This document shows positions 6,823-12,441 of a stretch of 26,836 nt of DNA, piece after piece. The stretch comes from a virus (Duplodnaviria; Caudoviricetes), in IMG/VR virus record IMGVR_UViG_3300005254_000140, positions 1-26,836 of that record. One strand, 5' to 3'. A program made the position numbers and the translations under genes. The first letter of the stretch is position 1. Every line of letters begins with the position of its first letter. Below the pieces are notes generated by a model. The model saw only the letters and a list, made by a program, of their open reading frames with translations. It was not told where the DNA came from and did no database searches.

Positions 6823-8676
6823 TTATGAGTTGATGCAGAAGCTTTCTGCATGGCCAATCGCGACATCGGCATCCTGGAACACGCGCAGGATGAGTCCGCC
6901 GGAACCGGCCTTGGTGGCGAGGTCCGGGTTGACATCGATGACGCCCCAGAAGCCGACCATGACATCCTCCCAGTTACCGAACATGAGGGAGTTGGCGGCG
7001 AGCTGGTTGGAGACGGCAACCGGATGGCCGTTGGCGTTGTCGCCATCCATCAGGAACAGGCCGCTGCCGGCGTCCTTGGCGGTGGTCTTGAGGTTGCCGC
7101 GCACGCCGGAGGTGGTGACGTATGCGAGCTTGCCTTCCAGCGCGTTGTCGGCGGCAACGGCAGTTTCGAAGCCGACCAGCTCCGACCAGGTCGGCTCGCC
7201 GGCAGAGGCAATGCTCTGGGTGTTGATACCGGGCATTTTGGAAATGCCGAGCGGCTGGTTGTTGGTGCCGGCGCCGGCCAGGATGCCGTAGTCAACGCCG
7301 AGCGCAGCGCCCTTGAGCAGGGCGTTGTGCACCACGCGCTCCACGCTCGGGCTGCTCTGCTTGAGCAGGCGCCGGGACATCGGCACGCCACCGGCCAGGG
7401 TCTTCGGCGCCATCTTGATCAGGCCGGTATCCATGTCGGTGAGGTTGGCGTCGTCATCGTCGCCAATCCAGCCGAAGATCGGGTTGGTGAGCGCGCGCGG
7501 CAGTTCCAGGTTGCCGTCGAGTCCGTCCATCACGGTGGCACCGAGCTGCATCACCACCGAGCGCGGACGCAGGGTGTCGATGAACATGTCGCTCATGTGC
7601 TGGGTGGCGGTCAGGTCGGCGTTGGTGGTGGCGTTCATCACGCGGGTGACCACATCCAGCGGGACGAAGAAACCGCGTGCCTCGCGGCCCAGGCGGTCGG
7701 TCAGTTCGCGGGAGCACTCCATCTCGAAGGCCGCGGCCTTCATCGCCTTGTGGTCGCCGTTGCGGGCAGCCACCACGGCGTTGATGGCGCGCATCAGGCT
7801 GTAGTTGCGCAGGTCGCCGGCGGAGAGATCCAGGCGGGTATCGGCAGGAGCATCGCCGCGGGTGCCTGCGTTATCCTCGGAGGGCAGGCGTTCCAGGATG
7901 GCGCGCTGCAGGTCCTCTGGGCTTTTGCCCTTGGCGATGTACTCCTCGGCCAGCTCGCGGGCGCCGTACTTGGCATAGCGGGTGCCCATGGCCATCAGGT
8001 CGGCCACGCGCTTCTGCTCGATGGCGCGCACCTCGTTTTCGATGGCGGTACGGTCGACCTGCGCGGGTGCTGCAGGGCTGTTGTTGTCGGCGGTACGGGT
8101 GTTCTGTGCGCCGCCCGGGTTGGTGTTTTCGTCAGGCATGATGTTGTCCTCAACTTCGATTTCAAAAGAATCGCCGGCGGCACGGCCGACACCTACGGAG
8201 ATATCAGCCGGCACGGTGACCAGGCTGATTTCGAGCGGCTCCCAGTCGGTAGCGCGATAGACGTTCGGGCCGTCTTCACGCTCCTCCTCGAGAACCAACT
8301 TGTGAACGCGATAAGCGAAGGAGACAGCGGTAAGGATGCCGTCCAACACATCGCGGAATTTTTCTTCAGCGACAGGGGAATTGCCGAAACGCACCACGGC
8401 CTTGCCGCGGCGGTTTTCGATCTTGATGTCACGCACCGCGCCGATGTGCGTGTTCCAGTTATGATTGAACAACAACGGACCGTTGGCGCGCATGCGATCC
8501 AGCCGCACCGCCTTTGGCGAGTGGTCGAGCACCTCCACGCCGAACCAGCGCTCCACGTCGCGTGTCTCGCTGGAAAAGCTGAGCTCGACCGTGCGCTCCT
8601 CCTCGTTCACCGCCTCGCGGCTGAGCATGAACGACCGCTGCAGCGGTGCGTCGCATTTAATCTTGCGTGTTGCCAT
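6823..8676 (-). CDS. Prohead protease-major capsid protein fusion (HK97 fold)
   Basis: Likely start MATRKIK at 8676 (GAGGA RBS), 617 aa. N-terminal protease motifs LLFNHN, VSFAY and WEPLEISLVTVPAD; low-complexity linker; then capsid domain (PKTLAG, ILAGAGTNNQPLGI, FGNW). Confidence 0.92.
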   Translation of the reverse strand: MATRKIKCDAPLQRSFMLSREAVNEEERTVELSFSSETRDVERWFGVEVLDHSPKAVRLDRMRANGPLLFNHNWNTHIGAVRDIKIENRRGKAVVRFGNSPVAEEKFRDVLDGILTAVSFAYRVHKLVLEEEREDGPNVYRATDWEPLEISLVTVPADISVGVGRAAGDSFEIEVEDNIMPDENTNPGGAQNTRTADNNSPAAPAQVDRTAIENEVRAIEQKRVADLMAMGTRYAKYGARELAEEYIAKGKSPEDLQRAILERLPSEDNAGTRGDAPADTRLDLSAGDLRNYSLMRAINAVVAARNGDHKAMKAAAFEMECSRELTDRLGREARGFFVPLDVVTRVMNATTNADLTATQHMSDMFIDTLRPRSVVMQLGATVMDGLDGNLELPRALTNPIFGWIGDDDDANLTDMDTGLIKMAPKTLAGGVPMSRRLLKQSSPSVERVVHNALLKGAALGVDYGILAGAGTNNQPLGISKMPGINTQSIASAGEPTWSELVGFETAVAADNALEGKLAYVTTSGVRGNLKTTAKDAGSGLFLMDGDNANGHPVAVSNQLAANSLMFGNWEDVMVGFWGVIDVNPDLATKAGSGGLILRVFQDADVAIGHAESFCINS

Positions 8677-10207
8677 TGTCTTCATCCTCTTGCTTTGCCG
8701 GCGCTGTCTTTTCCGACGCGAGCACCGGGAACGAAACCTTTTTCTGCTCGACCATCGCCTGGAACTCGGCGATCTGCTCGAGCACCTCTTCCACATCGAG
8801 ACCCATCTCGGAAGCGACGCGCTGCGGGCTGGTGAGCCCGGCATTGATGGCGGCGATAACCGCCTGGATATCCTTGAGCGGGTCCACCCAGCTCCAGCGC
8901 CGGCCCTGGTGGCGGTGCTCACTGAAGCGGTCGATGAGTTCTTCTTGAGAAACAACGCCGCCGAGGCGGCCATGGAATACCGCGTTTTCCAGCCAGCGCA
9001 GGTAAATGCGCTCCTTGACGGCGGAGATGTAGGAGTCCTGCTTGACCTTCCAGCGCTCACGCTCTTCCAGCGTGCCGCTGCGGATGCTGGAAAAATTCAC
9101 GTCGGTGAGGTCGCCGGTCAGCCCGTGATAGGAGACGCCGGTGCCCATCGCCATGTCGCGCTTCAGGGTTTTGGTGAAGGGCTCGAAATTCTCGTGCGGG
9201 TATTTCGGGTCGAAGCCGACGAAAGTTTTGTCTCCGCTGAGGTGGCCGATGGTGCCGGCCTCGATCTCCTCGATGAGGTCGCCGTTGCTGTCGACCTCGT
9301 CGGCCTCGTCCATCGCGTGGCCGTTGCCTTCTTTGTCGACCACCCAGCCCATTTTGCTGGCGCCGTAGCGGGCGGCGACGATGGCGGTCTCGATGTACTG
9401 GGAGAGCTGGTGGATATCCAGCATGGCGCTGGCCAGCCAGCTCACGCCGCGCAGCTGCTCTGGCCGGTCGGCCTCGAACCAGTGGATGATGTCCTCTGCC
9501 GGCACGCGCTCGTGCTCGTCGCGGATGTGCACCCAGCCGACCCGCTCGCCCTTCTTCAGCCAGTACGCCACCGGGCGGCCTGCCGCGTTGAGCTCGACGC
9601 CCAGGCGGATGCGGTTGCCGTTTTTCAGGTCGACGTTGAGCATATGGTCCAGCCGCGCCGGGTCCAGCAGCTCGATGACGAACCCCCACGGATTGCGGCG
9701 CGTCGGCTGCACATCGTGCAGGCGGATGAGGCTCTCGCCGTCACGGGCGGTAGTGCGCACCGAGACGCGGTCGCAGCCCTGCAGGGAGAGCTTGCCGGTG
9801 ATTTCGCACACACCTCGGCGCGCCCATTGGCGATACTCGCGCTCGGCCAGCGCATTACCGACGCTGTCGAGCTTGCCGTCACGCTTCTTGCCCATCACCT
9901 GGGTGACAAAGCCGTTGGGGCCGACGATATGGGTTTCGTTGAGGGAGAAGAAAGAGCGCGCCAGGTTGCTGTTCTGCTCCAGCTCGCGGGCGCGCAGGCG
10001 AATGATGGGGAGCTGGCTCTTGAGTTCCTGGTTGATATCGCCGCCACCGCTGAGCCAGTCGGCGGTAAGGCGATCCGTCTTCGCCGCCTTCCAGGCTCGC
10101 GCGACAGCAAACGGACGCCAGCGCGAACGGCGGCGACGAGCAACCTCCTCAGCCGCTGCCGCCTGAGTGTCTTCCCTGCGCGTTAATTTTGAGAGCCAGC
10201 TCGCCAT
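8657..10207 (-). CDS. Portal protein, lambda family
   Basis: RARELEQN, IRLGVELNAAGRPVAYW, RPEQLRGVSW, VNFSSIRSG and WVDPLKD motifs. Start at ATG 10207 (or GTG 10213). Confidence 0.95.
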   Translation of the reverse strand: MASWLSKLTRREDTQAAAAEEVARRRRSRWRPFAVARAWKAAKTDRLTADWLSGGGDINQELKSQLPIIRLRARELEQNSNLARSFFSLNETHIVGPNGFVTQVMGKKRDGKLDSVGNALAEREYRQWARRGVCEITGKLSLQGCDRVSVRTTARDGESLIRLHDVQPTRRNPWGFVIELLDPARLDHMLNVDLKNGNRIRLGVELNAAGRPVAYWLKKGERVGWVHIRDEHERVPAEDIIHWFEADRPEQLRGVSWLASAMLDIHQLSQYIETAIVAARYGASKMGWVVDKEGNGHAMDEADEVDSNGDLIEEIEAGTIGHLSGDKTFVGFDPKYPHENFEPFTKTLKRDMAMGTGVSYHGLTGDLTDVNFSSIRSGTLEERERWKVKQDSYISAVKERIYLRWLENAVFHGRLGGVVSQEELIDRFSEHRHQGRRWSWVDPLKDIQAVIAAINAGLTSPQRVASEMGLDVEEVLEQIAEFQAMVEQKKVSFPVLASEKTAPAKQEDEDNGNTQD

Positions 10208-10260
10208 GAGCACCGATTGTCCGGTGCTCTGATGTGACGGTTATATATACAGCGTCAGAG

Positions 10261-10371
10261 ATTGAGCGGACTCAGCTAAAGCTGCGCGGGTTTCGGTGTC
10301 CGTGGTTTCGTTTGCCATGTTCGCTTCTCGTGGTTTCGTTTCCGGCGGGCCGCTAAAGCAGGGCGTTAGCC
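10261..10371 (+). mobile_element. attC-like site 1 (left end degenerate)
   Basis: L''-like ttgagcggac pairs imperfectly with gccgctaaa. G/T-rich centre. Ends GGGC-GTTAGCC (R', 10365-10371). No intact RYYYAAC at the left end. Confidence 0.6.
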
Positions 10372-10605
10372 GTTGAAGTTCACCGGCTCACCGTTCAGCC
10401 GCGTGATACTGGTGGCGGCGTACTCCCCTTCACCGGAGGCCGAGATGATCTCGTTGCCTTCCCAGTGATCGAAGATGATCCAGCGCTTCGTTCCGGGGCA
10501 TTTGGTAACCGTGATCCGATCGCCCTTCTTCAGCACCTTCTTTGCCGCCTCTGTTGCTTTGGCCAGCCGCTCTCTCCTGGCCTGCCGTTCCTCTTCCGTA
10601 TACAT
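10366..10605 (-). CDS. Cassette A hypothetical protein (79 aa)
   Basis: MYTEEERQARR... with GGAG RBS; the TAA lies within the R' box of attC1. Confidence 0.8.
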   Translation of the reverse strand: MYTEEERQARRERLAKATEAAKKVLKKGDRITVTKCPGTKRWIIFDHWEGNEIISASGEGEYAATSITRLNGEPVNFNG

Positions 10606-10628
10606 CGCCGTTTCTCCAAGCCTTACTC

Positions 10629-10733
10629 GGCTAACAAGGCCGCTCCAGCCGACAGGCAAAAGCGGCGCGGTTTCAGTTTTCTATCTGGCCTCGGTTGGCC
10701 GCTTTTGCCGTCGGCTGAGCGGCGGCGTTATGT
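10629..10733 (+). mobile_element. attC site 2 (canonical, 105 bp)
   Basis: GGCTAAC-aaggc-CGCTCCAGCCGAC-A-GGCAAAAGCGGC ... GCCGCTTTTGCC-GTCGGCTGAGCG-gcggc-GTTATGT. It has R''/R' boxes, 5-nt spacers, long paired arms and two unpaired bases (C and A on top, i.e. extrahelical G and T on the bottom strand). Confidence 0.9.
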
Positions 10734-10871
10734 GCCTTTGCGCATCCGCTTAATATAGGCATCAACTTTTACCTTCTCGGCATCGGTTAGGTAATACTCA
10801 CGCCGCTTCTGCCCGACATCGGCCCTGCGTTTCCGCAGGGCCTCCTGTTTCTGCTTGTTAGTGAGGGCCAT
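10728..10871 (-). CDS. Cassette B small basic protein, likely DNA-binding (47 aa)
   Basis: Hand-translated MALTNKQKQEALRKRRADVGQKRREYYLTDAEKVKVDAYIKRMRKGT*. TGATG coupling to the upstream gene; the TAA lies in the R' box of attC2. Confidence 0.75.
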   Translation of the reverse strand: MALTNKQKQEALRKRRADVGQKRREYYLTDAEKVKVDAYIKRMRKGT

Positions 10872-11110
10872 CAAACATAATCGCCTTCGGCATCTCGCAT
10901 GGTGATAACGGCTATGGTTTCTCCGTTCCAGGCCAGGTTGTCTGCCTGCGTTTCACCGCGCTCATAGGCGGCAGCAACGACGAGAGCGGCTTCTTCGCTG
11001 GTAGCGGCTACCAGGATGCTGTTTTCTCCATCCCACTCGGCATTTTCGTCTGCGGCGGTAACGTCGCCCTGGTCAACAAGGTAAAGACTCAGTTCGTTGT
11101 AGTTGCTCAT
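10871..11110 (-). CDS. Cassette B acidic hypothetical protein (79 aa)
   Basis: Strong AAGGAG RBS; lies directly downstream of its own sigma70-like promoter. Confidence 0.8.
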   Translation of the reverse strand: MSNYNELSLYLVDQGDVTAADENAEWDGENSILVAATSEEAALVVAAAYERGETQADNLAWNGETIAVITMRDAEGDYV

Positions 11111-11162
11111 GGTCGCTTCTCCTTTCTAGGCTTCGGGCTAATTCCCTCCGTCCTTGGTAATA

Positions 11163-11191
11163 ATACTAGCGTGGTTACCGGTAACCGTCAA
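11163..11191 (-). promoter_or_regulatory. Sigma70 promoter with palindromic operator in cassette B
   Basis: TTGACG-17 nt-TAGTAT on the minus strand. The perfect 14-bp palindrome GGTTACCGGTAACC (11173-11186) lies in the spacer. A/T tract upstream (11204-11220). Confidence 0.8.
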
Positions 11192-11229
11192 GAGGGAGGA
11201 TGCACTTTTTTAAAAAAAGTTACCCCGGC

Positions 11230-11377
11230 ACATAACCCGGCGCTTCAGCCGATTCGTCGCCGCGATGCGGCTCTCCGCACCTCGCGTCAGTGCGCCTCGG
11301 TCTTGGTTTCGGTGCTGGCCTTGGTTTTGGTGATCCTCTCATCGTCTGCTCCGCGCCGGTAAGCTGTCTCGTTATGA
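11230..11377 (+). mobile_element. attC-like site 3 (148 bp)
   Basis: ACATAAC-ccggc-GCTTCAGCCG ... CGGTAAGC-tgtctc-GTTATGA, with a G/T-rich centre; arms are less perfect than in attC2. Confidence 0.75.
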
Positions 11378-11578
11378 ATACTTCGCGCACCCGAGGCACA
11401 CGTGCATCCAATCATCAATCCTGAAATATTGCTCCCCAACTGCAATCTCATCCCCGCACACGCGGCACTTCGTTGGCTTCGCTCTCTTTCCCTTGTTCAT
11501 ACCGCGCACGGTGAACGGCACCCTCACATCCGCCGGCTTTCCGCCGATCTCGGTCACATGAACCATATTCATAACCAT
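11372..11578 (-). CDS. Cassette C small zinc-finger protein
   Basis: CRVC...CLGC; start at ATG 11578 or 11572 (GAGGTG RBS); the TAA lies in the R' box of attC3. Confidence 0.7.
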   Translation of the reverse strand: MVMNMVHVTEIGGKPADVRVPFTVRGMNKGKRAKPTKCRVCGDEIAVGEQYFRIDDWMHVCLGCAKYS

Positions 11579-11880
11579 CACCTCAGCCAGTACCAGGTCT
11601 CACGCCTGGCGATCTGCCCAATCGTCATGATATGCACGCCCTTCATCACCGCGACCTCCTGCTGCGTGTGTTTCTCGAGAAGCAGACGGATGTCCCGCAC
11701 GTCGCAGGCGCTGAGCTTGGTGGTGGCCTTCGGCGCCTTGACGCGGTAACTGCGCAGCAGGCGGAAGAAGTGACCGCGTGAGACGCCGGCCAATTGTGCC
11801 GCCCTGGCACGGTTCAGGCCTGCCATGGCCAGGCACATCATGACCTCTGCTTTGCTGGGTGTGCTGTGAATGGCGTGCAT
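11578..11880 (-). CDS. Tandem HTH protein (Fis-like HTH plus second HTH)
   Basis: GLNRARAAQLAGVSRGHFFRLL, then KLSACDVRDIR...TQQEVA...TIGQIARRETW; AAGGAG RBS. Confidence 0.75.
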   Translation of the reverse strand: MHAIHSTPSKAEVMMCLAMAGLNRARAAQLAGVSRGHFFRLLRSYRVKAPKATTKLSACDVRDIRLLLEKHTQQEVAVMKGVHIMTIGQIARRETWYWLR

Positions 11881-11892
11881 ACTGTTCTCCTC

Positions 11893-12441
11893 TTAGCGAG
11901 TGAAACGGATCTTGATCTTGTTCTGCGGGCGTTCGCCACGCTCCAGGGCGGCGGCGGTCTCTTCGCTTTTCACCTCGCGCCGGTATCGGTCACGGGCGAC
12001 GATGAGCTCTGCGCTCTTGCGCTCGATGGCGCGCTCCCCGAACTGCCCTTTAATGAGATCCATTTCGTCAGCTGTGGCACGCCCCTCGAGCGCTGCCTCG
12101 ATGGCGTCGAGCATCTTGCGGGCGTGGCTGCGCCCATCGTATGGCCCGGCGGTGAGATCCGGTGTGATGATGATGGTGCCGGCGAACAGCGATCGCTTGC
12201 GCCCGTCGGTGTGGGTGACATAGGCGGTCCAGTCATAGCGCCCGGATGCCCAGGTTGCCGTGGTGGCGCTGTCGACGCTGACCGCGTGATTGTCGCCATC
12301 AGCAGCACTGGTGATGCTGTAGACGGCTGTGGCGTTGAATAGCGCGTAGTGCAGCGTCCACCCATCGCTTGCCGGGTAGTCCGGTAGACTGCGGTTCCAG
12401 TCGAGTGAATCGCCGGCGGCGATTTTTCCGGGTTCGTTCAT
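11893..12441 (-). CDS. Head-tail adaptor (gpW-like C-terminus)
   Basis: 182 aa directly after the terminase; LDAIEAALEGRA...ELIVARDRYRREV; GGAGG RBS. Confidence 0.6.
   Translation of the reverse strand: MNEPGKIAAGDSLDWNRSLPDYPASDGWTLHYALFNATAVYSITSAADGDNHAVSVDSATTATWASGRYDWTAYVTHTDGRKRSLFAGTIIITPDLTAGPYDGRSHARKMLDAIEAALEGRATADEMDLIKGQFGERAIERKSAELIVARDRYRREVKSEETAAALERGERPQNKIKIRFTR

Follow-up and report, generated by a model that had tools for sequence, protein, structure and literature searches.

Integrons are treated as bacterial platforms, and clusters of attC sites in phages as rare captures. How, then, did small genes separated by attC-like sites come to lie just upstream of the portal gene of a phage, and can they still move? 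The window, i.e., the whole stretch of DNA analyzed here (26.8 kb, the extent covered by the searches), is an identical stretch of a 44.2-kb contig (L004). Its minus strand carries late genes for terminase, head-tail joining protein, portal, protease-capsid, sheath, and tube, and repressor-like and CII-like genes suggest a temperate phage. A DNA similarity search against 50,697 GenBank phages returned nothing similar. The cassette array lies between a double-HTH gene and the portal gene, in an interval of 1.37 kb (Table 1). Our reading, to which we assign a probability of roughly 0.64, is that this interval holds integron cassettes with genes antisense to attC, that these were likely inserted by an IntI from outside (of the host or of another phage), and that excision is predicted for the middle cassette alone.

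Table 1. Features of the cassette array and of its conserved flanks (window coordinates)
Feature	Position	Strand	Remarks
Portal gene	8657..10207	-	PHROG 21, E 1e-92; conserved left flank
Backbone element upstream of portal	10208..10260	-	TGAC..ATATAAC motif, common to L001 and L008
attC1, damaged	10247..10371	+	R' (G/TT at 10365), L', and body present
Cassette B (gene B + attC2)	10366..10727	+	Ends complementary over 8 bp
Gene B, 79 aa	10366..10605	-	Ends on the R' box, with its TAA as stop codon
attC2, canonical	10629..10733	+	Crossover G/TT at 10727; covariance-model match and fold
Cassette C (promoter, C1, C2, attC3)	10728..11371	+	Ends complementary over 10 bp
Gene C2, 47 aa, basic, pI 10.4	10728..10871	-	Stop codon in R' box; 22 homologues
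Gene C1, 79 aa, acidic, pI 4.05	10871..11110	-	Variable slot of cassette C
Sigma70-like promoter TTGACG-17-TAGTAT	11163..11191	-	14-bp palindrome (11173-11186) in spacer
attC3, 148 nt	11230..11377	+	Boxes present; crossover G/TT at 11371
Gene D, 66 aa, two CxxC motifs	11372..11572	-	Spans the whole segment between R'' and R' and stops in the R' box
Putative left half of a fourth attC	11569..11592	+	R'', spacer, and part of L''; overlaps 3' end and stop codon of HTH gene
Double-HTH phage gene	11578..11880	-	Pfam HTH_23; conserved right flank, kept in relatives
Head-tail joining gene	11893..12441	-	PHROG 5774, E 2e-40

The preliminary description had listed three attC-like sites, the second of them canonical. 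A covariance model (CM) built from 25 bacterial intI-linked attC sites matched attC2 and nothing else in the window (plus strand, 39.6 bits, E ~3.5e-7), and a second model built from 17 longer sites agreed (37.3 bits, E 4.5e-7). The site has the R''/L''/L'/R' boxes, the spacers, an extra-helical base, and a bottom-strand hairpin, and its minimum-energy fold is canonical (-34.3 kcal/mol), in agreement with the earlier assignment. Since the extra C of its left arm is on the plus strand, the bottom strand, i.e., the one that recombines, is the minus strand. The 6-nt spacer of attC2 made a fixed-width profile overlook the site, which a flexible profile recovered. The third site, attC3, went unmatched by both models, and its canonical fold lies 5.5 kcal/mol above the minimum; it was recognized by the arm profile, with scores of 32.8 and 32.3 against shuffle maxima of 25.9 (20 shuffles) and 28.6 (10 shuffles). 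The same-strand attC pair within 4 kb thus consists of one site found by CM and one found by profile only.

The two outer sites are incomplete. At the R'' position of attC1 (10247-10253), the sequence reads ATACAGC, so that the AAC, and with it the full set of attC features, is missing. The site has neither a CM match nor a canonical fold, its right arm scores 19.1 bits with the arm profile (rank 2 on the plus strand), and its body (10276-10368) was matched in soil contigs, where it follows a different left arm. Inside attC1, on the minus strand, there are a purine-rich SD-like site, an ATG, and a 26-codon frame, which resemble the leaders within attC sites of relatives. On the other side, no complete attC was found in the window beyond 11575, the fourth site having no right arm. 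An attC arm of the relative L008 agrees with the 24 nt at 11569-11592 in 15 positions, 12 of them consecutive, and the 24-nt stretch is likely half of an attC, which would have been fused to the HTH gene by microhomology. In a plasmid search, attC2 gave only short chance matches and gene B none. Most of attC2 (10639-10730) is found again, with a single difference, in a short soil contig of high depth and varied flanks, and therefore represents an attC type shared in that community.

Each segment that follows an attC had been described as having perfectly complementary ends, and these were found over 8 bp (10365/10635), 10 bp (10727/11236), and 10 bp (11371/11575). Among the 2,208 GTT..AAC pairs lying 150 to 700 bp apart in the window, 9 reach at least 8 bp and 3 reach 10 bp, two of the latter belonging to the array. 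The R'' and R' boxes of a single site pair much less well, as also claimed (4 bp in attC2, 6 bp in attC3). For comparison, 20 intI-adjacent regions were taken from sampled bacterial genomes, where a structural scan yielded 47 attC sites, with intI predicting the strand of every one. The ends of bacterial segments lying between such sites pair over at least 8 bp in 50 of 81 cases, against 5 of 81 for the boxes of one and the same site. The contrast being the same in bacteria, the end-pairing signature of the window is a normal mark of integron cassettes.

The orientation of the genes is a different matter. All four cassette ORFs (B, C2, C1, and D) are on the minus strand, the top strand of the attC sites being the plus strand, and the stop codon of B, C2, and D is in each case the TAA of an R' box. 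In the usual cassette, a form that is not defining for recombination, a top-strand gene lies upstream of its attC; in this array it is the 5' end of the gene that adjoins the attC, and the genes run in the direction of the phage late genes. The preliminary description was right about small ORFs of no known family and missed the inversion of all four: none of B, C1, C2, and D belongs to a significant family in Pfam, PHROG, or NCBIfam, and their Atlas matches are <0.9. We scored a segment as inverted when a bottom-strand frame ending at R' takes up at least 80% of it. By this definition, 15 of 30 viral segments are inverted, against 2 of 81 bacterial segments (Fisher test; P = 1e-8, a value that overstates independence because the viral set was gathered by relatedness or motif and L006 was left out). 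The mirror, top-strand layout was found in 2/30 viral and 23/81 bacterial segments. These viral segments come from 14 contigs, the window included, which were gathered via portal relatives, B relatives, and one motif and are not independent; counting the two forward segments of L006, which had been dropped, the fraction is 15/32. The latter contig carries a forward, host-like cassette array (L006:989-2290) at a distance of ~1 kb from a fragment of a portal gene, and one of its cassette genes resembles a pseudopilin. CM matches were obtained for 12 of the 29 viral loci that have one attC motif. An SD-like site and an ATG inside the attC, in frame with the next gene, occur in 5 of 27 phage sites and in none of 41 bacterial sites, most of which are shorter. 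We also considered whether attC2 or attC3 of the window supplies the start codon of the next gene, and rejected this.

The order adaptor, HTH, portal is kept in six distinct relatives, in which the interval varies from 52-55 bp (L013 and L015) through 0.36 kb (L001), ~0.9 kb (L009), and 1.6 kb (L011) to 3.2 kb (L008). It contains six attC sites in L008 and two in L011, all found by CM, and one, found by profile only, in L001. Models and profile gave no attC at the interval of L009, which has an insert, nor in L013 and L015, which are empty there. The arrays of the relatives are all inverted alike and have no cassette gene in common with the window, and the ends of six L008 segments are complementary over 8 to 12 bp (by eye). 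The alignment of relatives proposed earlier therefore shows that cassette presence and absence varies, without placing an insertion site at G/TT: the outer ends of the window's array are not clean G/TT insertion junctions, and the empty relatives are too divergent for the site to be mapped. A fixed locus that is empty, lightly loaded, or heavily loaded, with genes oriented for phage transcription, points to a pool of cassettes on the phage side.

Several other features of these and other phages are worth recording. The early region of the L001 phage carries another inverted array. An early-region second inverted attC array (L079:11-1650 and L080:19449-19534, both of G002) comprises at least six sites, two of them nearly identical, and is located between an excisionase-like gene and an integrase. 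The terminase of L001 (L001:2771-4762) is 37% identical to that of the window, versus 77-80% for adaptor and portal, a difference that sequence comparison indicates is a module swap adjoining the array. In two unrelated phages (L008:4620-4930 and L152:9960-10270), the last gene of the array is a look-alike, and the same attC-arm remnant precedes it. In the relative L002, an ORF that we take to be insertion-sequence-like (L002:1-110) begins ~150 bp upstream of the portal gene.

The window was said to lack IntI, and a tblastn search confirmed this over its 26.8 kb, with more than 10 kb clear on each side of the array; neither intI nor attI stands beside the cassettes, as they would in a complete integron. 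No IntI exceeded the cutoff in a MAG (G001) that holds an empty-interval relative, the single one seen in a bacterial genome. Among the 301 sampled genomes of the host class of one relative, a tally that includes three unpublished genomes, 111 have an IntI over the cutoff. One of the 13 virus records searched (G406, the record of L124) encodes a full IntI (395 bits, cutoff of 265) together with portal, head, and terminase genes, in a phage unrelated to that of the window. There, a complete integron lies in the packaging region (L124:1-1813, i.e., G406:C1:20603-22415): its reversed cassettes extend to a G/TT site ~55 nt before intI, which is oriented like the cassette genes and is directly followed by the terminase. 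The record G405, a close relative, has terminase DNA (terL) 95% identical to that of G406, shares a cassette with it at another position, and has no IntI; its inverted attC array is long and lies between the small and large terminase genes (L152:9936-14660). Because G406 encodes its own IntI, the host is not the only possible source of integrase. The earlier proposal of a host integrase acting in trans is thus compatible with the window and is joined by a phage-encoded alternative; judging from these sequences, the integrase could have come from the host, from another phage, or from an ancestor with its own.

That last possibility, in its full form, makes the array the remnant of an integron of this lineage, with intI either lost between the array and the portal gene or in the contig's remaining 17 kb. 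G406 offers the model, being built in the same way (reversed cassettes, G/TT site, intI, and terminase), and the identity between G406 and G405, which has an array without IntI, begins at the last bases of intI. The portal-side end of the window's array is precisely where intI would stand. The site found at that end, however, is attC-like and not attI-like, the window contains no intI remnant, and the three relatives with arrays at the interval (estimated to be 88-100% complete) have no IntI over the cutoff. We therefore consider descent from an integron of its own unlikely, and retain insertion by an outside IntI.

The mobile unit can be read from cassettes found in more than one place. An attC and a B homologue form a 364-bp block common to L123 and L124 (99.7% identity, one mismatch), which begins with TAAC, ends with TAACG, lies between unrelated flanks, and occupies different positions in the two arrays. 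A 3,230-nt soil contig matches the window from 10364 through gene B into attC2 (10364-10644), with a different attC arm before, and pieces of C2 in soil contigs start at 10726; these contigs are from one study and could be of phage or of cellular origin. Since the block and the soil contigs are bounded at R', the mobile unit extends from one R' to the next, just like a bacterial cassette except that its gene is reversed. G/TT bounds, complementary ends, and different neighborhoods thus come together in the L123/L124 block and in the soil contig with B. No cassette circles were seen among the contigs of one sequencing run, in which the stretch was present in one contig and rare forms are missed by the assembly.

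A block ending exactly at R' on both sides argues against a route in which IntI played no part in the phage, the cassettes having come once as a block or having been swapped by homologous or illegitimate recombination between hairpin repeats, in the manner of the PeSL modules of T4. Bacterial arrays, rarely inverted (2/81), would be a poor donor; attC1, attC2, and attC3 are, moreover, too dissimilar for easy homologous exchange. On the other hand, both outer sites of the window are broken in mid-attC, one of them apparently through microhomology to the HTH gene; L024 and a soil contig have attC sites in which the sequence between short direct repeats was deleted; and capture of this kind was suggested in Qi 2023 (PMC9892861). 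All considered, we find this route rather improbable as the origin of the array.

The unit could also be defined differently, as a gene with the attC downstream of it in the reading direction, inserted by the top strand at R''. Read along the minus strand, the window then gives backbone G/TT, D, attC3, C, attC2, B, attC1, and G/CT backbone, with no orphan parts, and L011 likewise starts with a gene and ends with an attC. This definition is largely refuted by gene B, which travels with the preceding attC in the L123/L124 block and in the soil contig. Nor does it suit the 5 of 27 phage sites that contain the start codon of the gene downstream of them, and top strands recombine less well according to PMC5027507 and PMC9892861, all of which makes it very improbable. 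That the hairpins are chance structures or terminators is hardly credible: attC1 and attC3 do lack CM matches, but the complementarity goes beyond chance, relatives carry same-strand arrays at the same interval, and for attC2 the match to two models (E ~4e-7), the arrays of relatives, and the R'-bounded L123/L124 block refute it.

Under the preferred reading, i.e., antisense cassettes inserted by an IntI from outside, the integrase would recombine folded bottom strands, as in bacteria, and new cassettes would enter at resident attC sites. Their genes would be transcribed by the phage operon, or by the promoter that cassette C may carry for itself, as the bacterial Pc promoter would read in the wrong direction. 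The outer sites would have eroded later, attC1 losing its R'' and attC4 its right half, and by consequence B and D would be fixed in place. In this scheme attC2 would stay the entry point, and recombination between attC2 and attC3 would be the sole remaining excision. The proposal of a shufflable accessory locus is thus supported by the variable interval and by shared blocks that end at R', and has to be restricted: with both outer sites broken, the array is only partly shufflable.

Some of these features have precedents. According to Qi 2023 (PMC9892861), 17 CALINs occur in 10,705 phage genomes, and five of six tested sites were active with IntI1; Cury et al. 2016 (PMC4889954) discuss where CALINs come from and note that their cassettes may move by an integrase in trans. 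The window resembles the phage CALINs of PMC9892861 in its same-strand attC sites (attC3 by profile only), its small unknown ORFs, and an integrase that is not nearby. Its array is inverted, unlike the main phage examples, which are called typical of bacterial arrays, and the consulted sections of that paper describe no antisense genes, R' stops, hotspot fixed in a phage group, or empty and filled alleles, as seen here. Bacterial cassettes and CALINs share with it the attC anatomy, the extra-helical base, the complementary ends, and the G/TT bounds, as far as covered in the excerpts of PMC4889954 and PMC5027507. In contrast to bacterial cassettes, the genes of the window are all reversed, B belongs to a phage family, and some attC sites of relatives hold start codons. 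IntI can also seed a cassette at a GWT site outside integrons (attG; bioRxiv 10.1101/2022.09.11.507474, partial text); unlike such insertions, the locus has both ends eroded, and no clean attG junction is mappable. The PeSLs of T4-type phages are promoter and terminator repeats boxing accessory genes, with shuffling and circles, as presented in the accessible part of PMC2839356. Repeated stem-loops flanking accessory phage genes are common to both systems, whereas the sites of the window have attC boxes and an integron-model match and are not promoter-plus-terminator repeats.

Phage CALINs with active attC are thus already known, and what the window adds is the inverted layout, in a partly decayed example. 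We found no literature on systematically inverted phage cassettes in a search that left subscription journals mostly outside, and the available parts of PMC9668308, PMC13323075, and PMC8876359 contain nothing on inverted cassette genes. It is likely that phages share a pool of swappable genes of their own, probably moved by the integrase of a host or of another phage. We advance only tentatively the broader view of a mirror-image integron system of phages, in which phage genes would repeatedly have been made into cassettes (attC at the 5' end, stop at R') and placed in packaging and early hotspots by a phage-encoded or borrowed IntI. A phage-side cassette pool would bring in site-specific shuffling beside the known routes of phage mosaicism.

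Gene B, for which we identified 58 homologues, belongs to a phage family found both with and without attC. An attC precedes the gene at 6 of its 23 viral loci (3 recognized by model or profile and 3 by eye), only follows it at 2, and was not seen in the vicinity at 15. The B homologue of L024 has no attC before it, and the attC after it was shortened between direct repeats. The same contig has an inverted array just before an excisionase-like gene and an integrase (L024:1720-2660), in which two genes take their start codons from within the preceding attC. In L138, L139, and L140, the B homologues lie behind long AT-rich attC-like hairpins of another type, unmatched by the models. Taken together, the sequences suggest that the B family may have become a cassette more than once. 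Lacking attC at 15 of 23 loci and standing behind unlike attC types at 6, it could show the birth of a cassette in paired alleles; families in which attC is present at some loci and missing at others offer a way into the question of how cassettes are made. Gene B was absent from 400 sampled genomes, a sample that does not prove absence.

The start region of the portal gene is covered by a hairpin, GAGCACCG-GACAAT-CGGTGCTC (window 10208-10260), which adjoins the TGAC..ATATAAC element and, with it, is likely regulatory. A LexA box upstream of the portal gene was rejected for its poor fit to the consensus, and an Rfam scan gave a single match, at chance level. Gene D has five other homologues; two viral loci proposed for it were rejected as spurious zinc-finger matches.

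Cassette C combines a promoter-like site with two genes. One such site was found in 10150-11950, against 0.5 expected in shuffles, which is weak by itself, and none lies in the attC sites. The product of C2 matches the plasmid repression protein UrfF weakly (E 0.0014, far under the cutoff), and C2 is likely the repressor of its own cassette. Autoregulated anti-defense operons have a comparable build, and from this architecture C1 is a possible anti-defense protein. Its Atlas neighbors are unnamed clusters (best, 0.88), and no viral loci were found for it. The DNA of cassette C gave three short, weak matches in the 400 sampled genomes, again a sample that does not prove absence. Soil contigs break at 10872 and at 11117-11129, with the promoter and C2 kept and C1 replaced. 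The C1 slot (10872-11129) holds other sequences in these contigs, in the manner of a self-regulated cassette family with variable cargo.
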